Virus record (IMG/VR): IMGVR_UViG_3300035703_000127 | Coordinates: 1-52,819 of that record | Source: a virus | Lineage: Duplodnaviria; Caudoviricetes | Length of the DNA stretch: 52,819 bases | Reading direction: 5' to 3' (one strand) | Shown here: positions 2,384-52,742 of the stretch, one piece after another | Layout of the letters: every line of letters starts with the position of its first letter | Numbering within the stretch: the first letter of the stretch is position 1 | Notes under the pieces: model-generated | Database searches by the model: none | Told to the model about the DNA's origin: nothing | The model's input: the letters and a program-made list of their open reading frames with translations, nothing else | Program-made: the position numbers and the translations under genes

Positions 2384-2523
2384 TTGGGTTCTCCTTGAAG
2401 TGGGGTTGTGTTTGGGACTGGCTTCACGCCGGGTGGCCAGGGCCCTCACGGCCTCTGACAGGTTGCGCCGGTGGCCTCACGCCTCCAGCTGTGCCCTCAG
2501 CTTTCCAACCCCCGATCGACAAC

Positions 2524-2550
2524 AAAAAAGCCCCCCTGCCAGGGGGGCGT
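2524..2550 (-). terminator. Rho-independent terminator after scaffold gene
   Basis: Minus strand GCCCCCCT-GGC-AGGGGGGC followed by TTTTTTG. Confidence 0.8.
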
Positions 2551-2570
2551 GACGCCAGAGCGGCGATGGC

Positions 2571-3401
2571 TCAGCGCTTCGGCTGGGTGTAGGCCAGGGC
2601 GAACTTCTCCTGGGTGGAGAGCTTGCTGATGTCCTGGCCGTGGGCCGTGCGCACATCCCGCCCAGGGCCCATGCCACTGCCGCTGCCGTACTTGGGCTTG
2701 AACAGGAAGGAATAGAGCTGGTGGTCCCGCTGCTTGGCGATGAAGTCGCCCGGCTTGAGGCGCTTGCCGGTCTCCTGATCGAGCTCCCAGTCGCCATTGG
2801 CATCCACCACCCCCAGGCTGCCGTCGGCAGGGTCGATCTTGAAGCGGCCCCCCAGGCGATCCCAGAACATGTCGAAGGCGCTCACGCCGTCTTCTCCCAC
2901 GACGGTGAGGCCATCGGCGGAGATAAACACCTTCTCCAGGGCGTAGCGCTGGCGCTCGGTTTCCAGCGCGCGCACAGCCCGCTCCCGCTCCTGAATCGCC
3001 TCCTGCAGCTTGCTGCTGTACTTGGTCTCGGTTTCACGCAGCTTCTCGGCCTCCCGGGCCTGGGCCTCGGCCGCCAGCCGCTCGGCTTCCGCGGCGCGCT
3101 CCTGGGCCTTGCGGTAGGTCTCGGGATCCAGATCCTTCACTGCCTCATAGCGTCGCTGGGCTGCCTTGGCGGCCTTCTCGTGCTCGGCGCTGATGCGGCG
3201 TTCGTTGTCCAGGGCGCGCTTGAGCTTCTCCAGGTCGCTGAGGCCAGCGTCATCGCCCTCGCCGCCGGTGCCGCCGCCCTGGCCTGCTGGGGAGCCGCTG
3301 CCGGCCCCCTCGCCGCCGTCGCCAGTGCCGGTGTCGGCCAGGAGGATGCCGCGGTAGACGGCTGCCAGTTCAGGGAAACGCTCAATCAGGCGTTTGCGCA
3401 T
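2571..3401 (-). CDS. Capsid scaffolding protein
   Basis: Gly-rich acidic N-terminus, coiled-coil middle (LEKLKRALDNER), C-terminal FKPKYGSGSG...KLSTQEK; immediately upstream of the capsid gene. Confidence 0.75.
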   Translation of the reverse strand: MRKRLIERFPELAAVYRGILLADTGTGDGGEGAGSGSPAGQGGGTGGEGDDAGLSDLEKLKRALDNERRISAEHEKAAKAAQRRYEAVKDLDPETYRKAQERAAEAERLAAEAQAREAEKLRETETKYSSKLQEAIQERERAVRALETERQRYALEKVFISADGLTVVGEDGVSAFDMFWDRLGGRFKIDPADGSLGVVDANGDWELDQETGKRLKPGDFIAKQRDHQLYSFLFKPKYGSGSGMGPGRDVRTAHGQDISKLSTQEKFALAYTQPKR

Positions 3402-3440
3402 GGTTCAGGTCGGGGCTCACCCCCGCCGTGATGGTGCGGC

Positions 3441-3599
3441 TTAGGTTTCCAAGGGCCGCTGACGCTCCATTCCCTGGCGCAGCGCCTTGAGCTCCTGACG
3501 GCGCATCATGGTTTGGCGATTGGCGGCTTGCCGCAGCTGGAGGGTCTCCAACAGCGCGCTGTAATCGGGCCCGTCCGCTGGAGGGGTTGCGCTGGTCAT
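3441..3599 (-). CDS. Small hypothetical protein (52 aa, not in ORF track)
   Basis: ATGA overlap with the upstream stop; MTSATPPADGPDYSALLETLQLRQAANRQTMMRRQELKALRQGMERQRPLET; stop lies inside the GGAAACCTAA motif. Confidence 0.55.
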   Translation of the reverse strand: MTSATPPADGPDYSALLETLQLRQAANRQTMMRRQELKALRQGMERQRPLET

Positions 3600-27716: not shown

Positions 27717-28790
27717 TCAGGCGGCCAGATCCAGGAGCCCCAGCTGCAGGGCCTGGGCCTCCAGCTGCCGGCGGCTGCGGGGGCGCCGGGGGGGCGCCTT
27801 GGGCAGCGCCTGGTGGCCCGGCGGTTTGAGCTCCACGGCCAGCTGCAGCGCCAGCTGACGGCGCACCTCCGGCAGCCGCTGGCCTCGCAGTGCCATCCGC
27901 GCTGCCGTGAGGAACTGCCCCAGGGCCTGCATCGGCATCACCGGCCGCCGGCCGGGGTTGCTCCAGAACTGCTCCAGCGCCTGGCGGTCACTGCGATGCA
28001 GCCGCCCCCAGATCGTTTGCACCAGCTGTTCCACCGGCTGCAGCACGTCCGCCTCCAGCTGGGCATCGGCCTGACCCACCAGCTCCTCATGCAGTTCGGT
28101 GGTGCCCGCCATGGCGTTGAGCATTTCTTCGAGCTCTCCGGCCTTCAGCCCCACCGCCTGGCACACCACCTCGGGGCTCTGGCCAGCCTCCAGCAGTTTC
28201 TTGGCCCGCGGCATCACCTCCCGCCAGCGAGCGGGGAACTTGATCGCATACCCCCGGTCGCGGAAGTGGTGGAGGATCTCGCCGTTGATGTACGGCACCG
28301 CGATGGTGCTGAGCTTGTAGCCGCTGGCGGGGTTGTACTTGCGGCAGCCCTTCACCAGGCCGACAAAGGCAATCGCCTCCAGGTCGTCGTAGGCCAGCTG
28401 GGATTTGCGCGCCCATCCCCAGGCGTACTTGCGCGCCAGCTTCAGGTTGTCGGTGATCAGCTGCTCCGAGTCGAGCTCCTCGCCGGTGTCCGGGTTGACC
28501 CAGCGCCAGGGTGCAGGGAAGCCGCCGCGATCTACTCCGGCGCCAGCACCAGCTGACGGTTCCAGATCAGCAGTTCCCGAGGGGCCCGCTGCAGCTGGCT
28601 CAGGGGCGCTCGGCTCCACTCCCCCCCGAAGCGTCGAATCTCGATCTGGCGCTCCCGCAGTCGCCACAGCCCGCCGACGGGGAGACCGCGCACGGCGCTG
28701 GCCGTGGCCTCCGGCAGTTGATTCAGCGCTGAGCGGTGGGCCGTTGGGGCCTGGGAGGGCAGGGGCACAGCTGGGCGGTAGGTCAGTCAT
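27717..28790 (-). CDS. Phage RNA polymerase sigma factor (sigma70 group 3, SigF-like)
   Basis: Region 2: LITDNLKLARKYA...YDDLEAIAFVGLVKGCRKYNPASGYKLSTIAVPYINGEILHHFRD; start uncertain, low-complexity N-terminus. Confidence 0.85.
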   Translation of the reverse strand: MTDLPPSCAPALPGPNGPPLSAESTAGGHGQRRARSPRRRAVATAGAPDRDSTLRGGVEPSAPEPAAAGPSGTADLEPSAGAGAGVDRGGFPAPWRWVNPDTGEELDSEQLITDNLKLARKYAWGWARKSQLAYDDLEAIAFVGLVKGCRKYNPASGYKLSTIAVPYINGEILHHFRDRGYAIKFPARWREVMPRAKKLLEAGQSPEVVCQAVGLKAGELEEMLNAMAGTTELHEELVGQADAQLEADVLQPVEQLVQTIWGRLHRSDRQALEQFWSNPGRRPVMPMQALGQFLTAARMALRGQRLPEVRRQLALQLAVELKPPGHQALPKAPPRRPRSRRQLEAQALQLGLLDLAA

Positions 28791-28815
28791 GGGCAGGATT
28801 CCTGGGGTGGGGAGC

Positions 28816-30441
28816 TCACCGGAAGCCCGGGGCCTGGGGCGGCCGGCGCGGGGCAATCGGGCCCTGGGGGATCAGATCCCCAGGCTTGGGATCGGTGTAG
28901 TGCTCACTGCCACGGCCCCAGCTGGCGGTCGTCACCCGCATCGGGCCGGTGCCGGACACGTAGTTGAGGACCTGGGTGGTGCTGTCCACCATGTCGTCAT
29001 GGGCTGCACCGGGGAACCCCAGCAGCTGGTCTTCGTAGGGCTGCAGCCAGCCGGCACCGGTTGGATGCCAGACCCGGCCCTGCTCGTACCAGGGGGCAGC
29101 GGCATTGGCGCGGGCCTCTTTGCCCCCCAGGGGGCGCACGCTGCGGATCAGGTAGCCGCTGCTCTCACGGCTGAGGGTGTCGATCACCGCCGGGCCGTTG
29201 GCGGCATCCTCCACCAACAGCTCCCCGAAGTGCCAGCGGTGCCAGACCGTGGCCAGCAGGGCCAGGGTGTCGATGAATCCCAGGCGCTGATTGATCACGT
29301 CCCGCAGGAACATGCCATCGGCGCACTGGCTCCAAATCGTCAGCGCCACAAAGTCGCTGCCGCTGGTGCTTTTGAAGGTGCAGTCCAGGGACGCCAGGGT
29401 GCGAACGATCTGGCTCTGATCGATCTGCGCCGGGTCGTAATAGCGGAACCACTCGCGCTGGAAGAGGTTGCCGCCGGCCACCGTCGGCTGCTGCTGGTAG
29501 AGGGCCTGCCACCAGCGGGTTGCCATGGTGCCTTCGGTCTTGCGCAGCTGCTCAATCGGATAGCGCTCCGGGCAGAGGGCCTCACCGGGTTGGCGCCAGT
29601 CCGGCTCACGGGTGCAGCTGGCCGGCAGCGGGGTGTATTCGGCCTGGGGCAGGGCAATGGCCGCCAGGTCGATCACATGCCACCGCTCGGGTTCGGAACC
29701 CCGATCGAGGGCCTCATCTTCCTTGCTCAGCAGGAAGCCGGTGAGGTCATCGAGGGCCCAGCGGGTCTGGATCACCACCATCGCGCCACCGGGCTCCAGA
29801 CGGGTGGAGTAGACCGCATCCCACCAGTCCTTCATCGCCGCCTTGTAGCCCGCGCTGTCGGCCTGATTGGCATCTTTCACCGGGTCGTCGATCACCCCCA
29901 GGTGGAAGCCCTTACCGGTGGCTGCACCGGCGACACCCACAGCCCACATGCCACCGCGATCGAGGGTGCCCCAGCGGTTGACAGCGCGGCTGGCCGGATC
30001 AATCGGCCCACCGTCTTCCGTGAAGAACTGCCGGGCTTCGCGGGAGAGGGAATCGGCCAGTTCAGCGCCATAGCTGGCCAGACCCACCCAGCGCTCGGGG
30101 TGACGGCGCAGGAAGTAGGCCGGGAACAGCCGGCTGGTCAGCTGGGACTTGCCATGGCGCGGCGGGGCCTGAATGATCAGGCGCTTGATCTGGCCATCGG
30201 CCACCGCCTGCAGACGCTCCACCAGCACATCGACGTGCCGGTAGAACTCAAAGCGGGGTGAGACGCGGCGGATGAACTGGGCCAGGCTGCCCACCTGCTC
30301 GGCGTTCTGCTCGGGGGTGAGGGCCAGCTGGTGGCGCTGGCGCTGCTGCTCCAGGGCCTGGCACCGCTGCCAGGCCGAGTAGCCGCCAAAGCGCTTGGCC
30401 GCTCCCAGGTCCAGCAGGGCATCGCCCAGACGGCGGCTCAC
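28816..30441 (-). CDS. terL: Terminase large subunit
   Basis: Walker A PPRHGKS, Walker B GVIDDPVKD, VIQTRW, nuclease motifs VEDAANG and FPGAAHDDMVD. Confidence 0.93.
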   Translation of the reverse strand: MSRRLGDALLDLGAAKRFGGYSAWQRCQALEQQRQRHQLALTPEQNAEQVGSLAQFIRRVSPRFEFYRHVDVLVERLQAVADGQIKRLIIQAPPRHGKSQLTSRLFPAYFLRRHPERWVGLASYGAELADSLSREARQFFTEDGGPIDPASRAVNRWGTLDRGGMWAVGVAGAATGKGFHLGVIDDPVKDANQADSAGYKAAMKDWWDAVYSTRLEPGGAMVVIQTRWALDDLTGFLLSKEDEALDRGSEPERWHVIDLAAIALPQAEYTPLPASCTREPDWRQPGEALCPERYPIEQLRKTEGTMATRWWQALYQQQPTVAGGNLFQREWFRYYDPAQIDQSQIVRTLASLDCTFKSTSGSDFVALTIWSQCADGMFLRDVINQRLGFIDTLALLATVWHRWHFGELLVEDAANGPAVIDTLSRESSGYLIRSVRPLGGKEARANAAAPWYEQGRVWHPTGAGWLQPYEDQLLGFPGAAHDDMVDSTTQVLNYVSGTGPMRVTTASWGRGSEHYTDPKPGDLIPQGPIAPRRPPQAPGFR

Positions 30442-36520: not shown

Positions 36521-37107
36521 TACTTGATGCTCCAGCTGCGGCGCTCCTCCAGCCGGGCGCCCGGCACCTGCTGGCCCAGCTTGAGGGCGGCCTTGATGGC
36601 CGCTTTGTCTACAGCTGTGCTGGTCTTGATGCGCATGAACGCATCTGGCACGGCCTCCTCCTCCTCGATCACCAGCCCCTGGGAGCGGCGGCTGCTGATC
36701 TGGTGGTTCGGCAGCGTGAAGGCCGTGGCGTTGGGCTGCAGGCGGGTGAGCACGGTGATCAGCGCGGCCTCCAGGCGATCGGCGCGGGCGCCATCGGCAG
36801 CGGCCAGATCGCTGAGGCGCTGCGCCTGCTGCTTGCGGTAGGCGGCCTGGCCCCGCAGGTTCTCGATCACCCAGCAGTAGGCATCGGCCTTGCGCTCCAG
36901 GGCGGCGCGCTGGCCTTCATCCGCGGCCAGCAGGGCCTCCAGTTCGGTCAGGGCGGCCTGGCGCTGCTCGTCATCGTCGCTGTCCAGCAGCAGGGCCAGG
37001 TTCTCCACCTGGCGGTTGAGCTCCTGGGATTCCAGGCCCAGCTGCCAGAGGGAAGGGGCTGCAGCCGGCGGCGCGGCCGCAGGGGTGGCCTCAAGGGTGA
37101 CAGACAT
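36520..37107 (-). CDS. Siphovirus Gp157 family protein
   Basis: KADAYCWVI...VDKAAIKAALKLGQQVPGARLEERRSWSIK; likely start MSVTL at 37107. Confidence 0.85.
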   Translation of the reverse strand: MSVTLEATPAAAPPAAAPSLWQLGLESQELNRQVENLALLLDSDDDEQRQAALTELEALLAADEGQRAALERKADAYCWVIENLRGQAAYRKQQAQRLSDLAAADGARADRLEAALITVLTRLQPNATAFTLPNHQISSRRSQGLVIEEEEAVPDAFMRIKTSTAVDKAAIKAALKLGQQVPGARLEERRSWSIK

Positions 37108-37214
37108 GGAACACATCCGTGGTGGCCTGATCAGGCCTAGCACTAAAACGCTACCGTTTCGGCGTCGGATCGGGCGGTGTTCCGATCTGATGCGCCCTTT
37201 TTCGTGACACATCC

Positions 37215-37397
37215 ATGGCGAGCCGAAAGCTGTCCCTTCACCTGGCCCCGCACGTCTTTGAGCTGCTGCAGGCCAAGGCGCAGCGAGAGGGTCGCTCCAG
37301 CGCCAACCTCGCGGCCTTCCTGGTGGAGCGCGAGCTCCGCAGCCCTCACAACATCCCGGCGGGCAGCAGCCCGGGCGATGGCACCAGCTCCAACTAA
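37215..37397 (+). CDS. Ribbon-helix-helix (Arc/CopG-like) regulator
   Basis: KLSLHL...LQAKAQREGRSSANLAAFLVE. Confidence 0.75.
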   Translation: MASRKLSLHLAPHVFELLQAKAQREGRSSANLAAFLVERELRSPHNIPAGSSPGDGTSSN

Positions 37398-37424
37398 CCC
37401 CCCCTGCCCTGTTGCGCTCCCCCC

Positions 37425-38057
37425 ATGCCCACCCTGGCCCGCAAGGAAGAAGTCGTCGTCATCCAGCCGCCCGATTTCCGGCTACTGGAACTGCAGATCC
37501 GCGGTACGGCGCCCCTGGTGATCAACCGCTTCAGCGCCAAGGCGATGGCGATGATGCGCGAAACCCAGGAAGCCGGCAGCACAGCCAAGTCCCGCAAGAA
37601 GCGGGAGCCCAAGGACTTCGACGCGCTCTATGAAGACGCGAAGCACCGCAGCGATGAGGGCTGGGAGGGCATCCATGCGGCGGCCTTTCGCAATGCCTCG
37701 ATCAGCGCCTGCCGCGCCTGCGGCTACGTGATGACCAAGGCCAAGCTGGCGATCTTCGTGCAGCAGGACGGCTTCGACGTGGTGGATGGTGCGCCGTTGG
37801 TGCGCATCTCAGAAGGGGTCGCCGAACCGTGGGTGGCCCCGACTCGCAATGCCACAGGCGTGGTGGACCTGCGCTGCCGGCCGATGTATCGCCAGTGGGG
37901 CGCCATCCTGCGGCTGCGCTACGACGCCGGCATGCTCACCCAGGGCGACGTGGTGAACCTGGTCGCCCGGGTGGGGCTGCAGGTGGGGATCGGCGAGGGG
38001 CGGCCCGATTCCAAGGCGAGCCCGGGTCTGGGCTTCGGCCTGTTTGAGATCGTCTGA
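37425..38057 (+). CDS. Stand-alone RAMP/Cas7-like RNA-binding protein
   Basis: RAMP-like order of motifs: LQIRGTAPL strand; GIHAAAFRNA (cf. IPGSSLKG); RPMY..W; C-terminal G-rich loop GLQVGIGEGRP...GLGFGLF. Manual recognition only. Confidence 0.6.
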   Translation: MPTLARKEEVVVIQPPDFRLLELQIRGTAPLVINRFSAKAMAMMRETQEAGSTAKSRKKREPKDFDALYEDAKHRSDEGWEGIHAAAFRNASISACRACGYVMTKAKLAIFVQQDGFDVVDGAPLVRISEGVAEPWVAPTRNATGVVDLRCRPMYRQWGAILRLRYDAGMLTQGDVVNLVARVGLQVGIGEGRPDSKASPGLGFGLFEIV

Positions 38058-38135
38058 TGGCTGACAACACCCCAGGCGGTCGCGATCCGCCGGCACTGGA
38101 GAGGCATTCGCGCCCTTGAGCCCCGGCATTCAAAC

Positions 38136-38633
38136 GACATGGCAACGCTCGGTGGCCCATTGCAGCGCCCACCTCTGCTTGGCACCGCAGGATTGGCTCG
38201 GCGACCCAACGCTTGGCTCGCCTTGGCTGGGCCTCTCACGGCTGGCTAGGAGGAGCTGGGATTGACCAGGCTCGGCCTCCCACTGCAGGCATGGATCGCC
38301 ATGGCTTTGCAGCGCTGGGCGGCACGACGCTCGGCATGACGCCGCTGGATAGGCAACGCCTGACGGTGCGTGGATGACGTGGCGAGGCCCGGCCCCCCAT
38401 CGCTGGATAGGCAACGCCTACCGAGGCACGGGGTGGCATGGCACGGCTGGAACCGCATGGCAAGTCGTCTCAACGATGGCGTGGCATGACCCGGCCGGCA
38501 ACGCATCCCATCGCACGGCTCGACAAGGCGACGCAAGGCGCCCCGCCGCAGGCATGGCACGGATCGGCAACGCTCCGTGAGGTATCGCAGGCGTGGCACC
38601 GCTCGCTCTGATCGGCCTCAGTGCGGCCGGCAA
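38136..38633 (+). repeat. Pentamer-periodic array (GGC-like triplet + NN) in ~10 blocks; probable non-coding RNA locus
   Basis: e.g. ggcTC ggcGA cccAA cgcTT ggcTC gccTT ggcTG ggcCT; blocks separated by 4-nt NGCH spacers at 38186, 38240, 38284, 38343, 38401, 38445, 38493, 38547, 38586, 38625. Confidence 0.8.
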
Positions 38634-38668
38634 CTGCCGATGACACCGGTTCGATTCGGACCAACACT

Positions 38669-38686
38669 GGGGGCCTGCGGGCCCCC
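38669..38686 (+). terminator. Strong hairpin closing the array
   Basis: GGGGGCC-TGCG-GGCCCCC with only a weak U-tract (TTCCCCT). Confidence 0.5.
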
Positions 38687-38705
38687 TTCCCCTATTGCTG
38701 AACCC

Positions 38706-39284
38706 ATGAGCGATCAACCCGTCTACGCCTTCTCCTACGAGGAGGCAGAAGCTGACCTGGGCGTGGATGCCCAGACCGCGGGCGCCGAGCTGGACCGCAT
38801 CCGCCGCCGCGATGGTCACATTGCCCCGGCGGTGGTGGTGGCGGAGAGCCGGCCAAAGAAGGCCCCGCTGCATCCGGCCTTTGAGTGGCGCGATGCGGTG
38901 GCGGCCGAGCGCTACCGCGAGCACCAAGCCAGCCAGCTGGTGAAGGTGGTGCGGGTGATCACGCCCCCACCGGCACGTCAGGCCAGTCCCACCACGGTGC
39001 GGGTGGAGCGGCGCCAGACCAGCGAGCCCCTGGTGGAGCGCCACGATCCCTTTGAAGCCCAGCTCAGCGAGGTGGTGGGCCAGATGGTGGAGACCGAGCG
39101 GCGGCTGGAGCAGATCAAGCTGCAGGCGCAGCGCAGCTTCGATCGGCAGCGGATGATCAGGGTGGAGGTGGCGCTCAGCGCGCTGCACGAGGCCCACGAG
39201 GCGCTGTTGGCGGCGGGCGAACGCGAGGGATGGGCCGATCTTCCCCGTGCGGCGATGGCCAGGGGCGGCGGCCGGAGGCGCTGA
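38706..39284 (+). CDS. Conserved phage protein, partner of the RAMP-like gene
   Basis: Start MSDQP at 38706; PAVVVAESRP..APLHPAFEWRDAVAAERYREHQA motif. Confidence 0.7.
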   Translation: MSDQPVYAFSYEEAEADLGVDAQTAGAELDRIRRRDGHIAPAVVVAESRPKKAPLHPAFEWRDAVAAERYREHQASQLVKVVRVITPPPARQASPTTVRVERRQTSEPLVERHDPFEAQLSEVVGQMVETERRLEQIKLQAQRSFDRQRMIRVEVALSALHEAHEALLAAGEREGWADLPRAAMARGGGRRR

Positions 39285-39316
39285 GCCTCCAGCCAGACGC
39301 GATGCCAGGGGATGGA

Positions 39317-39682
39317 TCAGGCCATGGCGGCCATCCCCTGCAGGGCCAGGGCCTGCAGCAGATCGGTGCGGCGGCCGGTGCGGGCCAGGGCCTTGAGGCC
39401 CAGCTGGCGCGCGCGGCGGCGCAGCTCACTCACCGTCAGCCCCTCCAGGGTGTCCTGGGCCAGGGCATGGAGCGGATGCACCACCGGCGGCAGGCAGCGA
39501 TCGGCCGGTATCGGCGGATCAGCCGGTGCAGCCAATACCTCGGCAGCTGGGTGCGAGGGCCCCTGCGGGGCGATGGCCAGCAGCAGGGCCACCAGGGCCA
39601 CCAGCACGGTGGCGGCGGCCTCCAGGGCCAGCCAGCTCACCAGCAGCAGCGCTTCCACCGGGTGCAGTTCGGTGCGGTTCAT
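39317..39682 (-). CDS. Membrane-anchored protein with Rho-N/SAP-like C-terminal domain
   Basis: Hydrophobic N-terminus; LEGLTVSELRRRARQLGL...RRTDLLQAL. Confidence 0.55.
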   Translation of the reverse strand: MNRTELHPVEALLLVSWLALEAAATVLVALVALLLAIAPQGPSHPAAEVLAAPADPPIPADRCLPPVVHPLHALAQDTLEGLTVSELRRRARQLGLKALARTGRRTDLLQALALQGMAAMA

Positions 39683-39893: not shown

Positions 39894-40103
39894 TCAGCCG
39901 TGACCGTTGGCGCGGCGGTGTTCCCGGGCCATTTCCAACAGGTGGGCGCAGAGATTGGAGGCGGAGCGGCCCTCCAGGCTGGCCTGCTCATGGATCCAGT
40001 CATGCAAGGCCTGGGGCATGGTCACGGAGATGCGATGGGGAGAACGCTGCAGGAAGGCCGCAAGAGGCGAGCTGGCGTCAAAGGGGACGTTGGAATAGGC
40101 CAT
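39894..40103 (-). CDS. Ribbon-helix-helix regulator
   Basis: RISVTMP...EQASLEGRSASNLCAHLLE. Confidence 0.75.
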   Translation of the reverse strand: MAYSNVPFDASSPLAAFLQRSPHRISVTMPQALHDWIHEQASLEGRSASNLCAHLLEMAREHRRANGHG

Positions 40104-40164: not shown

Positions 40165-40908
40165 CTAATCAGGTGCCGAATGTGTCCGGGTTGCGTCAAC
40201 GTGCGGCATGCCGGCACACAGCCGAACCCCGAAGGTTCGGGCCCAGTCCCACGCCAGCTCCTGCAGGTCCGGCCGCCCGGTGAGCGGCAGCAGCCAGATC
40301 GGCACCTCTCCGTTGCACCGGGCCTTGAGAGCGCGATCAAGCCAGCGAGCATCCTGCGGGCCCGTCACTGGCTGAATCACCTCATTGGCGCGGCGGTAAA
40401 GCCAGTCCCGCACCATCAGCCCGCCCGGTTGCTGATGTTTCGGGCTCAGGCTCACCCACACCCGACGGTCCACGCTCAGCGGCAGCACGCCACTGGTCTC
40501 CACCTGCACGCTGTAACCCCGCTCCAACAGCTGGGCGCTGAACCAGGCCAGGTCGTACAGCGCCGGCTCTCCGCCGGTGATCAGCACATGGCGGCTCTGG
40601 TAGCCCCCGATCAGCGCCAGCAGTCTGGTGCCGCTCAGCCAGCGCCAGCCCCGCTGGCCGTCCCCCCGCTCCAGGTCTTCTTCGCTGGCCTGATCCTCTT
40701 CATCGGCGATGGTCGGCTCGGGAATCCCGGCTGGCGCATTGCACCAGGGGCAGCCCACCGGGCAGCCCTGCAGCCGCAGCACCACCGCCGGGGTGCCGGC
40801 ATGGATGCCACAGGGGACCGGCTCTTCTCTCAAGCTCCAGACCGCCAGGCAGCTGTCCTGGGGCTGCAGCTGCACCGGGATGGCCGCGGTGGACGGGACC
40901 TGTTCCAT
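40165..40908 (-). CDS. queE: QueE-like radical SAM protein
   Basis: GTPAVVLRLQGCPVGCPWC, HVLITGGEP, VQVETSG, WVSLSPK; N-terminal QGEG motif absent. Confidence 0.65.
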   Translation of the reverse strand: MEQVPSTAAIPVQLQPQDSCLAVWSLREEPVPCGIHAGTPAVVLRLQGCPVGCPWCNAPAGIPEPTIADEEDQASEEDLERGDGQRGWRWLSGTRLLALIGGYQSRHVLITGGEPALYDLAWFSAQLLERGYSVQVETSGVLPLSVDRRVWVSLSPKHQQPGGLMVRDWLYRRANEVIQPVTGPQDARWLDRALKARCNGEVPIWLLPLTGRPDLQELAWDWARTFGVRLCAGMPHVDATRTHSAPD

Positions 40909-45160: not shown

Positions 45161-46816
45161 GGCCGCGTCCCTTTGCGTGGTGTAAAATCCGAGGCCGCAC
45201 TTCCCTGATCAGAGGGTGATCAGAGTGGAATGAGCGGATATCAATCCCGAGGCGATGGGTTGCCTCGTTCATTCACCTTGCACGGTCACAAATGACCTGT
45301 CAAGGCATGTCTGCCTGAGTGTCCTGATGGTGCAGCAGGGTTCAGCGCCGGCCCCCGGGCGCCAGAGGTCCGGCCCGCCCTGTGGGGGCGAGCCAGAGCG
45401 CTGGCTGGGTCCCGTGTGATCGCTGGCTGCTACGCGGTGGCTGTAGTGGCTCGGGCACCGGGCGGCAGTTCATCGGCTGCCGCCGGAATCGCGGCCATCG
45501 AGTCGAGCGAGAACATGCGGCGGCCCTCCAGCTGCCAGTGCTCGTCCTGCTCAAGCAGCACGGCCCCCACCAGGCGCGTGATCGCGGCGTCGTTGGGAAA
45601 GATGCCAACGACACGAGTGCGGCGCTTGATCTCCTCGTTCACCCGCTCCAGCAGGTTGGTGCTCCACAGCTTGCGCCAGTGGCTGACTGGGAAGTGGCGG
45701 AACGCCAGCACGTCCTCGCGGGCTGAGGCCATGAGTTCAGCGGCCCTGGGGAACTTCCCGGCGAGCATCGCCGCCACCTGATCCCACTGCTCCTGCACGG
45801 TGGCGGCGCTCTGCTGGGTGAACACCGAGCGCAGGGCAGCGGCCACCATCTCCTGCTGGGCCTTTGGCACCGTCTGCAGGAGGTTCCTGGCGAAATGGAC
45901 GCGACAGCGCTGCCAGGAACACCCCTGGAACATGCGGCCCACGGCCTTGGTCAGGCCCACATGGGCGTCACTCACCACCAGCCGGACCCCAGTGAGGCCG
46001 CGCTGTTTCAGGCTGGCGAGGAACTCCCGCCAGAAGGGCTCACTCTCGCTGTCGCCCACCTTGAGCCCAAGCAGCTCCCGGCGGCCATCGGCGTTGACGC
46101 CCATGGCAACGACGACGGCGCGGGAGCAGACCTGCAGCGTCTTACCGAGCCGGCCGTGGAGGTAGGTGGCATCCAGATAGAGGTACGGATGGCGGCTGCC
46201 ATCGAGGGGCCGCTCCAGGAAGGCCTGGATCTGGGCGTCGAGCCCCTGGCAGATGCGGCTCACCTCCGAGCGGGAGATCCCAGCATCCGAGCCGATCGCG
46301 GCGACCAGGGCGTCGACCTTCCTGGTGGAGACGCCCTTGACCCAGGCCTCCATGATCACCGCGTAGAGGGCCTGATCGATCCGCCGCCTGGGCTCGAGGA
46401 TCGTCGGGAAGAAGCTCCCCGAGCGGAGTTTGGGGATCGAGAGGGGGAGGTCGCCCACCTGGGTGGTGAGCAGGCGAGGTCGACTGCCGTTGCGGTAGCC
46501 GAGGCGTTCGTCGGTGCGCTCATGGCGCTCGGCACCGAGCACGGCGGCAACCTCCAGCTCGATCAGTTGCTGCAGGCCGTGGCGCGCCAGCTCAGGGATA
46601 AGCTCCCCGGCCGTGCTGCCATCCAGTAGCGACGCCAGTGCTGAGGCGCCAGAATCCGTCTTGGGCATGGTTCGTCTGGTTGAGGTGGTTCTCAAACCAG
46701 GGAAGCGGGCCTGCCCACCCCCTACAAGCGCTGGAGCCTGGAGCGGTGGTCGGCTCAGCCCCGGCTACACCGGGGCTGAGGCCCAGGGAATTTCCACCAC
46801 TTGGCGGGACTCAGGC
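45161..46816 (-). mobile_element. IS256-family insertion sequence
   Basis: 8-bp direct repeat CACCTCAA at 45153-45160 and 46817-46824; imperfect terminal inverted repeats (GGCCGCGTCCC..GTGGTGTAAAATCC / GGCCTGAGTCCC..GTGGTGGAAATTCC). Confidence 0.9.
45430..46695 (-). CDS. IS256-family transposase
   Basis: GYRNG, GVSTRKV, YLYLDAT, VSDAHVGL, WQRCRVHFARN, STNLLERVNEEIKRR. Confidence 0.95.
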   Translation of the reverse strand: MRTTSTRRTMPKTDSGASALASLLDGSTAGELIPELARHGLQQLIELEVAAVLGAERHERTDERLGYRNGSRPRLLTTQVGDLPLSIPKLRSGSFFPTILEPRRRIDQALYAVIMEAWVKGVSTRKVDALVAAIGSDAGISRSEVSRICQGLDAQIQAFLERPLDGSRHPYLYLDATYLHGRLGKTLQVCSRAVVVAMGVNADGRRELLGLKVGDSESEPFWREFLASLKQRGLTGVRLVVSDAHVGLTKAVGRMFQGCSWQRCRVHFARNLLQTVPKAQQEMVAAALRSVFTQQSAATVQEQWDQVAAMLAGKFPRAAELMASAREDVLAFRHFPVSHWRKLWSTNLLERVNEEIKRRTRVVGIFPNDAAITRLVGAVLLEQDEHWQLEGRRMFSLDSMAAIPAAADELPPGARATTATA

Positions 46817-48463
46817 CACCTCAATCCAGGCGCCCCAGGCCCCAAGATCCTTGATCCGGTTCAGCAGCGGCTCAAAGTCCGGCACCCAGTCCAGCGTGAG
46901 CGGGTTGACGCCCACCGTCACCACGTGACCGGCGGCCACCAGCTGCTCCACCAGCTCAAAGCGACTTTCGATGCTGGGCGCCATGGGTTCGACCCGCTTG
47001 CGCACCGCGTCGTCGAGCATCGGGATCGACACGTACCAGACCGACGGCGGGTTCTCGCGGATCACCTTCTCCAGGAACGGGCGCTGGGGCTTGTGGGCCC
47101 CGCGGGTCTGCCAGGTGAGGGGGATCTGGAGCTCCATGCACAGCTCCCAGATCGGCTCGAACTGCTCGGCATTGGTGCCGGCGAAGGGATCGACGTGGTT
47201 GGAGACCAACATCGGCACGCCCGCCTGAAGCAGCTTGGCCTCACGGGTGCTGCGGGTGCGGTAGTTGGCCAGCAGCCCCATGATCCCGGACAGGTCCGCC
47301 TTGCGGTCCGGCTTGAACGCATTGGCAAAGCAGTTGCGCGATAGGAACCCTCCTGAAACGTAGTTGTGGGTAGACGTGCGGAAACTGGCCACGCGGATCA
47401 TGCCAGCGTCTTCCACACGCACCACTGGGATGCGTTCTTGCAAGCCCTTCAGGGACCGTCCCATGAGGGAGTTCGCTTTTCGGGTGATGGCAGGTTGAAC
47501 AAACTGCACGAATAGTGGTGCTGCCAATCCCACAGCATTGACGAGGCGAATGGCTTTGTCTTCCGAGACGAACTGGAACCCAAAGGACAGCAGAGCTTCT
47601 TCAATACGGCGATAGGTGATTGGGTTCTTCTCTCGGTGTTGGCAGATCCGAAGTGCCGACTGGGTGGCGCCAGAGCGACGGGCTGGAGTGCTTCCCTCTG
47701 CGTCATAGATGCCAGCGAGCCAGCCACGCCAATACTCACGCTGCTCGGCGGCATCCGCAGAGGCCATCAGTCGGCTCACAGGATGCTCCACAGGGAAATA
47801 GAGCTGCTGCATCGGGGAGCGCCCCGGCGTAGCGGTGTAATCCTTGAACGCCCGTAGTGGCTGGGAGGCCCAGCCCAGCGCAGACACAAAGGCAGCTACA
47901 CGCTCCAGCGGCTCAGGGTCCTTCAGCGCAATCCGCCAAGCGCCATATGGCGTTGTGCTGGCGTCGCCTTCCAACAAGCCGCAGATGTAACCCCGGCGGT
48001 AGTCATCGCAGAACGGTTCATCCGTCAGCAGTGGCAAGCGAATGCGATGCAGAGCTCGTCCAGGGCGAACAACCATCCGCGAATAGGGGCCGACTGTGCA
48101 GATCGGCGCGTACTCGATCACCCCACGGCGACCCGTCCAGAAGTGGTGATCAGGGGTGCAGGTGATCGTTTCGCCGTTGGCCAGGTGAACCCGAACACCG
48201 GGCACCTCGCGAGCAAACACCTCTTCCACCACGGCCGGGGCCCATTCGCGGTGGGCACCAACACCACGAGACTGGAAGCCCAGGAGAACATCGCCTACCT
48301 GCACAGCCTTGCCGGGCTTGGTGCGGAGATTGGCGAGCATCACCGGCGAGTTTTCTTCTATGCAGTAGGTGCAGGCATGGCCGCACCAGTTCATCGAAAG
48401 CTCCAGGCCCGCCGGGGAGACCAGGAACTCGCCCGCGTAGGCGCGGATGCCATCGCCAGCCAT
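46811..48463 (-). pseudogene. N-terminal half of an SplB-like radical SAM gene containing an intein; truncated by the IS
   Basis: CGHACTY-[intein]-CFAN restores CxxxCxxC; TGA stop lies in the IS end. Confidence 0.8.
47333..48364 (-). mobile_element. Intein with LAGLIDADG homing endonuclease (344 aa)
   Basis: Starts CIEENSPV; block B ITCTPDHHF; YICGLLEGDAS and WLAGIYDAEGS; ends THNYVSGGFLSRN with +1 Cys. Confidence 0.9.
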
Positions 48464-49119
48464 CAGCCTTCCTCCCGGGCGTGGATCTGGGCCAGGAAGT
48501 CATCGGCCAGCTTGAGCAGGGCGATCTTGTCGCGGCTGTAGCCCAGCTCCTCTTTGGCCTGGCGCCAGCGGCGCAGCTCCTCGGGTTCCAGCACGATTGC
48601 CAGCGGCTGGCCGCGGGAGGGGTCGTCGGGGTCGCCGTAATCCGGCTCCTCCTCATGCTCCTCGATGCCATCCTCCTCGCCCTTGCTGATCAGCTCCTGG
48701 AGCTCATCGGGGCGGAACCAGTCGCTGGTGTCGAAGCCTTCATCGCTGAGCGCGGCCAGCACGTCGTCATCCCACTCGCTGAGCTCCCCGGTGCGGTTGT
48801 CGGCGATCGACAGCTGCACCTTCTGCTCAGGGGTGAGGTTGGTGCGGCGCACGGCGATGATCTCGTTGCCATCGGCCTCGATCACTCGCACCTTCTCAAT
48901 GCCAACCTGGCCGGCGGCCTCCACCACGCCGTTGCCGGCGATGATCTGGCCCTCTTCGTCGATGACGATGGAGCGGCCGACGCCGAGGGTCTGCAGGCTG
49001 TGGGCGATGCGATCGGCGCTGCGGGAGGTGCGGCGACGGGGATTGCGGGGATCGGCCCGCAGCTGAGAGATGTGGCTGATCTCAGCGGCGGCAGCCTTGG
49101 GGGCAGCTTTGGGGGGCAA
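48463..49119 (-). CDS. ParB/Srx-like N-terminal domain protein
   Basis: ISQLRADPRNPRR...SIVIDEEGQIIAGNG...IADNRTGELSEWD. Confidence 0.85.
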   Translation of the reverse strand: MPPKAAPKAAAAEISHISQLRADPRNPRRRTSRSADRIAHSLQTLGVGRSIVIDEEGQIIAGNGVVEAAGQVGIEKVRVIEADGNEIIAVRRTNLTPEQKVQLSIADNRTGELSEWDDDVLAALSDEGFDTSDWFRPDELQELISKGEEDGIEEHEEEPDYGDPDDPSRGQPLAIVLEPEELRRWRQAKEELGYSRDKIALLKLADDFLAQIHAREEG

Positions 49120-51526: not shown

Positions 51527-52254
51527 GCCTCCACCTCCGGCGCCATCAGTATCTGCCGGAGCGGCACCGGCAGCGCGTGGTGGGGGAGCCAGTGGGATGC
51601 GCCCCAGGAAGGGCCATAGGTGCGGTCCAGTAGCTTCCACCCCCAGTCGTCGTCATAGTCGCCAAGCTGATCGGCCCAGAACCAACACTTTCCCTCCCCA
51701 TCGCAATCCTCCAGCCCCGGCAGCCGCTCAGCGACGGGCACCGGCTCGATGGCGGGGCGGTGCCAGCGGGCGAGGACGGCGCGAGCGAAGCAGTGCTGCT
51801 GCGTTGGCCATGGTCCTTGATCTTGTTCTGTTGCCCAACTCCAAAGATCGCTGATCTCTTCATCCGTCGCCTCCTGCGGCTCAGATTGGCGCCCTGATAC
51901 CGCTTTAGTCCACCCGTCGGCGTAGCCCTCCCGGTAGGCATGAAAATCGTCGCCACGATGCGTCCATGGAACATCAATTTCTTCGCAGTCCAGCTTCGCC
52001 CCCTGCGGCTCGGGCTGGGCCAGGGCGGCGCCATCCAGTTCGGCTGCGATGGCGAAGAATTGAGAGCGAATGCTTTGCTGAATTATGTCTTCGAGAATAG
52101 AAACCAGGCCATCCTCTGGCACCACCTGATCCGCAGCAGCACGCAGGGCGGCGGCGGCATAGCTGGAGTAAAAGTTCGTTTGCCACTTTGGGTTTCGTGT
52201 TGCTTTGTAAGCGGCTTTCAGAATTGCCTGTGCGGCGGGGGATAGGTGAGTCAT
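51523..52254 (-). CDS. Hypothetical protein, LSPAA paralog with extra domains
   Basis: MTHLSPAAQAI...AAALRAAADQV...FAIAAELD, then PVPVAERLP...SHWLP. Confidence 0.6.
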   Translation of the reverse strand: MTHLSPAAQAILKAAYKATRNPKWQTNFYSSYAAAALRAAADQVVPEDGLVSILEDIIQQSIRSQFFAIAAELDGAALAQPEPQGAKLDCEEIDVPWTHRGDDFHAYREGYADGWTKAVSGRQSEPQEATDEEISDLWSWATEQDQGPWPTQQHCFARAVLARWHRPAIEPVPVAERLPGLEDCDGEGKCWFWADQLGDYDDDWGWKLLDRTYGPSWGASHWLPHHALPVPLRQILMAPEVEA

Positions 52255-52742
52255 GGATTCCAATGATGCTCAAGACGATGGGCGAGAGCGGCCAGGTGAG
52301 CTTCGTAGGGAGTGTCGTAGGTGCCTACGTACTGCTTTCTGCCTTGTCCGATCACTTGATAGCTGGCGTACCACCGGCCTTCTGGAGTAGGGCGCACGTA
52401 GCGCCAACCAGCCTTGCCTCGCTTGCGTTTATTCTGCTCGTTGGTAGATCGACAGCACCAGCGAAGATTCTTTGGGTGGTTGTTGAGCGGGTTGCCGTCT
52501 ATGTGATCAACCTCTTTGTGGTGTGACTCTGGCATGATGCCGGAAAGCGCCAAGACAATGTGAGAACAGGCATAAGTCCTGCCTTTTGTCTTAACCCTGT
52601 AGTAGCCGTCAACTAGATGGCCCGCCATCTTTTGATGGTTTTGGTACGGCACCAGTTGGCGCCACGACAATCCTGAAGGCTGAGACGGATCAACCTGAAA
52701 ACGCTCACGCCACAGGTCGAGCCTGTCTTGTGCAATGGTCAT
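52251..52742 (-). CDS. HNH homing endonuclease with AP2 domain
   Basis: EVDHIDGNPLNNHPKNLRW; C-terminal YVGTYDTPYEAHLA. Confidence 0.85.
   Translation of the reverse strand: MTIAQDRLDLWRERFQVDPSQPSGLSWRQLVPYQNHQKMAGHLVDGYYRVKTKGRTYACSHIVLALSGIMPESHHKEVDHIDGNPLNNHPKNLRWCCRSTNEQNKRKRGKAGWRYVRPTPEGRWYASYQVIGQGRKQYVGTYDTPYEAHLAALAHRLEHHWNP

Follow-up and report, generated by a model that had tools for sequence, protein, structure and literature searches.

The locus described here lies on the plus strand of the window, by which we mean the whole 52,819-nt (52.8 kb) record IMGVR_UViG_3300035703_000127 of a Caudoviricetes virus, and it has four parts: a gene for a ribbon-helix-helix (RHH) protein, a gene (vipr) for a 210-aa protein, a 648-nt gap that holds a periodic array, and a gene for a 192-aa protein, P192 (Table 1). 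In this island the phage, which is uncultured and siphovirus-like, very probably carries a VIPR system (Viral Interference Programmable Repeat); the assignment is based on the homology of the 210-aa protein, the adjacent array on the same strand, the turnover of that array, the conservation of the module among relatives, and the absence of cas genes and CRISPR repeats.

The plus-strand island and its array

The window encodes a siphovirus-like phage (major head protein, portal, large terminase, tape measure, Gam-like, QueE-like and ParB-like genes) with a GC content of 66%, and nearly all of the other open reading frames (ORFs) with a coding signal in third-position GC are on the minus strand. 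The first-pass annotation had singled out the same plus-strand island, and each of its four parts is present where it was described; the stretch of about 640 bp behind the 210-aa gene that it took to be free of ORFs corresponds to the gap at 38058-38705, which contains no credible ORF. Its claim that cas genes and CRISPR repeats are missing also holds: none of the 63 window ORFs matches a cas model (PADLOC), and CRISPR-like repeats are absent from the whole window, where Tandem Repeats Finder returns two short coding repeats only. No Rfam family was matched in 36900-39500, and a consensus scan of the same interval found no sigma-70-like promoter.

Table 1. Features of the island in the window, and the corresponding trio of a cultured mycobacteriophage
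Feature	Position	Strand	Details
Imperfect inverted repeat	37162..37193	.	12-nt arms, 83% complementary; terminator-like in consensus scan
60-aa RHH (CopG/Arc-like) gene	37215..37397	+	Pfam RHH_5, E 4.6e-7; PHROG Arc-like repressor, E 0.0036
vipr, Cas7-like RAMP protein of the Vipr family	37425..38057	+	210 aa; profile homology, AlphaFold2 model
Leader, vipr stop codon to first called unit	38058..38135	+	78 nt; background in HMM parse
vrRNA array, 101 (G/C)GC-NN pentamer units	38136..38629	+	Viterbi parse of unit HMM
Eleven 4-nt junction units (starts)	38186, 38240, 38284, 38343, 38372, 38401, 38445, 38474, 38493, 38547, 38586	+	HMM; -1 phase slip each
Candidate guides 1-6 of 12	38136-38189, 38190-38243, 38244-38287, 38288-38346, 38347-38375, 38376-38404	+	runs between junction units
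Candidate guides 7-12 of 12	38405-38448, 38449-38477, 38478-38496, 38497-38550, 38551-38589, 38590-38629	+	runs between junction units
GC-rich hairpin, 7-bp stem GGGGGCC/GGCCCCC, then TTCCCCTATT	38669..38686	+	fold of 38620-38705; between array and partner gene
P192, conserved partner gene	38706..39284	+	192 aa; start supported by alignment of 29 homologues
Mycobacterium phage Quico trio (L093, NC_028751)	2120-2365, 2501-3100, 3115-3570		early region, between anti-repressor and Xis genes

The 210-aa protein ends in a glycine-rich stretch, VGIGEGRPDSKASPGLGFG, and had been read as RAMP-like with a G-rich end, a reading that both structure prediction and homology bear out. The AlphaFold2 model (pLDDT 93.1, pTM 0.86) has a RAMP fold. 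When a profile of 69 homologues (A2) was searched against 177,635 PDB sequences, 36pp, 'SUSP1 Vipr protein', was retrieved at E 1.1e-6 with the runner-up at E 0.64; the single 210-aa sequence already ranks 36pp first (E 0.054), and hhalign of the profile with the SUSP1 Vipr coding sequence gives 95.4% probability and E 1.6e-8 over 171 columns, nearly the full length. In a Foldseek search of the model against the PDB, 36pp was not among the matches listed; searches of Pfam, NCBIfam and PADLOC gave no match for the protein, and the RAMP model of Pfam matches 0 of the 69 family members. The family itself is large, with 4,270 proteins at E <= 1e-3 (90% clusters) and 2,299 representatives (50%), and in the ESM Atlas both the 210-aa and the 192-aa protein are found among unnamed viral clusters. 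Residues that contact the guide in SUSP1 align by hhalign with residues of the window protein as follows: the thumb residue R138 with R152, and the G-loop residues D177 with E191, W178 with G192 and R179 with R193. R152, G192 and R193 are invariant or nearly invariant across the 69 sequences, and the counterparts of R138, R179 and D177 are conserved.

The gap that follows vipr is periodic. A purpose-built hidden Markov model (HMM) of the GGY-NN unit, with 4-nt units allowed, was used to scan both strands of the whole 52.8 kb, and it calls one array only, of 101 units on the plus strand, spanning 494 of the 648 nt of the gap. Autocorrelation of the gap gives identities of 0.34-0.37 at lags 5, 10, 15 and 20 versus 0.22-0.33 elsewhere; the lag-5 excess is 0.097, whereas none of 994 other 648-nt stretches of the contig exceeds 0.031, and it corresponds to z = 10.2 (500 shuffles). 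The local period-5 power peaks at 38126-38300 with a value of 3.6 (99th percentile 2.3), the strongest in the contig. As a positive control, the detector was applied blind to the initial 50 kb of Escherichia phage SUSP1, and its unit calls were confined to the published VIPR locus, where they flank the vipr and vap1 genes on either side.

The units have a characteristic composition: position 1 is G (0.66) or C (0.26), position 2 is G (0.73), and position 3 is C (0.83) or T (0.07), followed by two variable positions (NN) that are AT-rich, at roughly 40% GC. The periodicity had been called strict in the first-pass annotation; it is real, and this is the single array in the contig, but strict it is not, with 40 of the 101 units perfect, a longest near-perfect GGYNN run of 5 units, eleven -1 slips, and no report of the array by Tandem Repeats Finder. 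These slips fall at eleven 4-nt junction units, which divide the array into 12 runs of 3-11 full units each (Table 1). The top long-range autocorrelation lags are 44, 29, 34, 49 and 39, all of the form 5k-1, the pattern that a single -1 slip in each run would produce. We infer that the junction units mark guide boundaries, on the strength of the 4-nt units in relatives, which are dominated by the form xGCA, and of the legend on 'staggered' arrays in the preprint that describes VIPR (bioRxiv 10.64898/2026.04.26.720920).

Conservation of the module and turnover of the array

A strong association between vipr, the array and the partner gene is evident among relatives. IMG/VR holds 41 loci encoding a protein 69-88% identical to the window Vipr, and an array of at least 10 units directly follows vipr in 38 of them; the other 3 end 46-223 nt past the gene. 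Outside the gap, 0 units are called in 275,602 nt of these viral loci. The arrays of 29 distinct relatives are mostly cleaner than that of the window (G 0.91 at position 1 and 0.88 at position 2); their 4-nt units are mainly GGCA (149), CGCA (38) and TGCA (23), and the commonest run length is 8-10 units. Among species genomes, 47 loci at 41-83% identity and from many phyla were found, with an array beside vipr in 44; the nearest are a Synechococcaceae metagenome-assembled genome (MAG) at 78%, a Gammaproteobacteria MAG contig at 79%, and two other cyanobacterial assemblies at 64-65%. Picocyanobacterial (Synechococcaceae) assemblies hold the closest genome-linked relatives. A single-protein query of the species genomes returned no close relatives. 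Deposited phages contribute 33 matching records: 27 from Mycobacterium, 5 from Gordonia, and Cyanophage Cy-LDV1 (55%). The order in Cy-LDV1 is g34, a 39-unit array, g33 and a 32-unit array; in Quico it is a 51-unit array, gp57 and gp58, so that a clean GGC-NN array lies upstream of gp57. The genes of the Quico-type trio are annotated as hypothetical in cultured mycobacteriophages. In G305, the 54-kb record of L029, pentamer units are called at both contig ends, and the assembly probably breaks inside an array.

P192 travels with this module. Its N-terminal domain is conserved (GVDAQTAG.EL.RIR ... APLHPAFEW..AAE.YREHQA) and its C-terminal part is helical. With a profile of 29 homologues (A4), a member is found in 34 of the 41 viral loci, the 7 without one being those that end within 500 nt after vipr, and in 45 of the 47 genome loci; it is on the vipr strand in 77 of 77 cases and downstream of vipr in 76 of 77, and it is present in Cy-LDV1 (g33) and in Quico (gp58). 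The adjacent 5-nt array and the PLH..FEW partner, which the first-pass annotation had proposed looking for in the flanks of homologues, are thus both kept. This tight linkage across loci identifies P192 as an accessory gene of this Vipr clade. No significant match was found for P192 in Pfam, the PDB, NCBIfam or PADLOC; its best PDB match, a 26-residue motif shared with SopD at E 0.018, is not significant and was rejected.

Between close relatives the array changes faster than the genes around it. In pairs of loci with vipr at least 90% identical, the arrays are far more diverged than the flanks and vary in length; for L025 and L027, identity is 95.8% in vipr, 92.5% in the partner gene and 53.6% in the array. 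Over eight such pairs the mismatch rates are 11-12% at NN, 9.3% at Y3 and 4.5-5.7% at G1/G2 (Fisher p 3e-8), a comparison that is descriptive only since the pairs share loci. The window array itself has no real similarity to the array of any relative.

Flanking elements and neighbouring genes

The RHH gene ends 27 nt upstream of vipr and probably encodes a local transcription regulator of the island operon. No tblastn match to it was found in any of 88 related loci, and the genes upstream of vipr vary among relatives; judging from these loci, the RHH protein is not a conserved VIPR component. The first-pass annotation had treated the whole island as one module, and this stands for vipr, the array and P192, which are linked in relatives, and fails for the RHH gene, which has no homologue upstream of vipr there. 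The inverted repeat at 37162-37193 sits in the divergent intergenic region 37108-37214, between the Gam-like gene on the minus strand and the plus-strand island, and may be an operator or another regulatory hairpin.

In some relatives the vipr stop codon is followed immediately by a conserved leader whose sequence differs from that of the window. In the subclade of L002, L006 and L027 this leader, conserved and containing a GATAAT hexamer, lies directly 3' of the stop codon; the window leader is just loosely similar to it. The GATAAT leader recurs inside the L027 array (L027 3543-3567), and this copy suggests internal promoters. At the other end of the array, the hairpin at 38669-38686 probably terminates the array transcript or caps its 3' end. 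Of 26 distinct relatives, 15 have a perfect hairpin of 6 bp or more in the corresponding position, compared with 32 of 520 random windows; the stems vary in sequence from lineage to lineage. The window hairpin fails the T-run rule of the terminator scan.

Several other genes of the window, all on the minus strand, were noted. Converging on the partner gene is an ORF for a 121-aa protein (39317-39682) whose N-terminal half is hydrophobic and whose C-terminal part carries a weak SAP/Rho_N-like motif (E 0.005-0.04). A short way downstream of the island, a second RHH_5 gene (39894-40103) adjoins the QueE-like radical SAM gene (40165-40908), which hints at 7-deazaguanine DNA modification in this phage. 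A transposase of the IS256/Mutator family (45430-46695; Pfam Transposase_mut, E 4e-131) within the phage genome suggests that the phage carries an insertion sequence. Between the genes for the large terminase and the portal there is a sigma-70-like gene (27717-28856; Sigma70_r2, E 1e-8; PHROG sigma factor). An ORF at 48463-49119 resembles ParB and the N-terminal part of a methyltransferase (PHROG ParB-like, E 3e-29; PADLOC MTase_II, E 1e-12), and one at 52251-52742 is homing-endonuclease-like (PADLOC HEase, E 1e-8).

Interpretation and comparison with known systems

VIPR was described in 2026 in two preprints (bioRxiv 10.64898/2026.04.26.720920 and 10.64898/2026.04.26.720927). Its defining repeats are tandem YNNGG (GGY-NN) units, at least four of them and on the strand of the gene, with a fixed triplet and hypervariable NN bases; its vrRNAs are expressed and purify together with Vipr, and in the former preprint a target is called at an 80% match. 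In the latter, cryo-electron microscopy (cryo-EM) of the SUSP1 system has one subunit per 5 nt, with contacts through H17, R138, D177, W178 and R179. According to a further preprint (10.64898/2026.10.15.759431), SUSP1 depends on Vipr together with Vap1 in countering a satellite. The window has a Vipr homologue, at least four adjacent units on the same strand, an accessory gene, and neither cas genes nor a CRISPR array. The first-pass annotation had pointed to a resemblance to VIPR and put forward an RNA-guided system other than CRISPR, formed by a lone RAMP/Cas7-like protein and a pentamer array; the predicted fold, the homology to SUSP1 Vipr and the conserved array and partner support that proposal.

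Transcription, processing, RNA binding and DNA silencing in this clade are predicted from SUSP1, and the following sequence of events can be proposed. The array would probably be transcribed together with the RHH gene and vipr from the divergent promoter region, with the transcript probably ending at the 38669-38686 hairpin. Cleavage at the junction units would then yield guides of about 5-11 units, as in a 'staggered' array. One Vipr protomer would occupy each pentamer, a stoichiometry drawn for this locus from the cryo-EM of SUSP1 only, burying the fixed xGC triplet and presenting the NN bases. The resulting filament would pair with double-stranded DNA matching NN-x-NN-x, one base in three being skipped, and the R-loop triplex so formed would block transcription of a rival mobile element. 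P192 may assist Vipr as Vap1 does in SUSP1, and the RHH protein would most likely act as a local operon regulator, outside the machine.

Several observations weigh against assigning the locus to VIPR. Perfect GGY is present in just 40 of the 101 units, and G1 and G2 are weaker in the window (0.66, 0.73) than in the pooled relatives (0.91, 0.88). The array has no repeated or invariant 3' tail of the SUSP1 type. W178 of SUSP1, which stacks on G2, is replaced by the invariant glycine G192 in this family, and H17 falls opposite N34 in a stretch that aligns weakly. P192 is not related to Vap1, the one protein of the vap1-6 set compared: BLASTP of P192 with SUSP1 Vap1 gives E 16, and the A4 profile finds no P192 member in the first 50 kb of SUSP1. 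The bias of substitutions towards NN is weak or absent in the window's own subclade, L031-L037.

Target searches belong on the same side. A set of 130 guides, each 8 units or longer and drawn from the window array and those of 29 distinct relatives, was scanned against 551,204 positions at skips of 0-3; at skip 1 there were 121 matches at >= 80%, versus 122.5 for shuffled guides. Eight window guides gave 5 matches in five whole related phages and the window, versus 5.35 when shuffled, and exact gapped patterns of four window guides gave 0, 1, 0 and 0 matches in IMG/VR. The lone exact match, of guide 38190-38243 at L089 601-629, lies in an AT-rich giant-virus MAG contig and was judged to be chance. 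Searches with one guide in JGI metagenomes and with two clean guides of relatives (L029, L040) each gave 0 matches; exact scans are much stricter than the 80% rule of the preprint, so that a blank result says little. One guide at <= 3 mismatches gave 1 match, versus 1 for the control, in 301 genomes of the family of the Synechococcaceae MAG. For guide 38497-38550, 17 of 20 NN bases match at a 1-nt skip at G303:C1:8999-9027, in the complete related phage that carries L001; the seven 3'-most units are perfect, and the site has no clear coding signal. This match is equalled by 8 of 400 order-shuffles of the guide in the same five genomes and, since several guides were tried, is not significant and serves as a lead only. 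No natural target is established in these scans.

The locus has intact genes and an array that is loose yet clearly periodic, and the likeliest alternative is a decaying VIPR locus, in which vipr and the partner gene are intact and the array has degenerated, or in which a few runs such as 38425-38449 still work. The blank target searches and the lack of NN-biased substitution in the nearest subclade would fit decay, as would the share of perfect units, which is 80-88% in the clean relatives L002, L006 and L027, and the several junction units that depart from the xGCA form (GGCT, CGCT, GGAT, CGAT, GGCC). We nevertheless consider decay unlikely. No other part of the contig is as strongly periodic, 90% of units still have C or T at position 3, and NN has remained AT-rich in a genome of 66% GC, a composition that speaks against neutral decay; vipr shares 86-89% identity with its nearest relatives and has an intact G-loop. 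Similarly loose arrays are found in lineages with intact genes (27/88 perfect units in L020, 44/116 in L023 and 51/131 in L039), and internal degeneracy of vrRNAs is frequent according to bioRxiv 10.64898/2026.04.26.720920.

It is also conceivable, and in our estimate very improbable, that the subclade reads a relaxed code, xxC/SGC-NN instead of GGY-NN, with G-recognising residues that differ from those of SUSP1 and with loose units that are functional. Position 3 (C 0.83) is kept better than G1/G2, C makes up 26% of position 1, the changes from W178 to G192 and from H17 to N34 touch the G1/G2 contacts while the Y3 contact is kept (R179 to R193), and the variants NNNGG, YNNNG and NNNNG are listed in bioRxiv 10.64898/2026.04.26.720920. 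However, clean GGC units prevail in relatives that share the GEGRP G-loop (all 69 sequences have G192), so that the residue changes do not explain the looseness of the window array. That the locus is not RNA-guided, the periodic stretch being a DNA element (iteron- or centromere-like sites) or a compositional by-product and the RAMP-like protein being otherwise employed, has next to no likelihood: a ParB-like gene elsewhere in the phage and the fact that the locus is known from sequence alone speak for it, and against it stand full-length homology to a Vipr with a solved RNA-bound structure, strand-specific GGY-NN units that nearly all relatives carry on the same strand as the gene, and the rapid turnover of array content.

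Since both the mechanism and the VIPR family were already published in 2026, the window locus opens no new class. Read as a VIPR system, it adds a well-delimited example from a high-GC, probably cyanobacterial, phage, and it reveals one Vipr clade in which a continuous GGC-NN array and a single uncharacterised partner family co-travel across very distant phages. Some phages of this clade are in culture and so open to bench experiments, namely Cyanophage Cy-LDV1, Mycobacterium phage Quico and the relatives of Quico, and the loose units of the window array offer a natural test of the need of Vipr for GG. A joint reading, which we regard as doubtful, is that the P192 family is an undescribed effector or loader and that the code of the window subclade has relaxed from GGY-NN to xxC-NN; if true, the guide format would drift while the G-loop stays fixed.

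Among known systems, class 1 CRISPR-Cas differs from the island, which has no repeat-spacer array and no cas genes beside the Cas7-like gene. Unlike the loci of the class 1 Cas7 proteins (Csm3, Cmr4, type VII Cas7, Cas7-11), it lacks CRISPR repeats, handle recognition by Cas6/Cas5, and cas1, cas2, cas3 and cas10; a VIPR subunit covers 5 nt, 2 of them guide bases, versus 6 nt, and sequence identity to these proteins is 8-16%, with the Pfam RAMP model unmatched throughout the family as noted above. With the type II system of SUSP1 (Vipr, Vap1 and four vrRNAs; 36pp) it shares a homologous Vipr of about 200 aa that has retained the G-loop and the thumb arginine, guides made of some 10-15 GGY-NN pentamers and encoded on the same strand as the gene, and a two-gene module. 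Protein identity to SUSP1 Vipr is about 22% over aligned columns, with W178 changed to glycine, and the fixed triplet is GGT in SUSP1 and GGC in the window. In SUSP1 every guide stands apart as a unit some 100 nt long that has a leader to itself and a conserved 3' tail, whereas the window has a continuous array with no invariant tail and an accessory protein unrelated to Vap1; the locus is therefore not type II, having neither separate tailed vrRNAs nor Vap1.

Also among the closest counterparts is the 'staggered' VIPR of bioRxiv 10.64898/2026.04.26.720920. The window units are looser than the published GGY consensus, and the RHH gene immediately upstream is not one of the components described. 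In common with it, the window has a lone, phage-borne Vipr gene with one accessory gene and no cas genes, and a continuous head-to-tail GGY-NN array in which guides adjoin one another, here at a 4-nt xGCA unit with a -1 slip.

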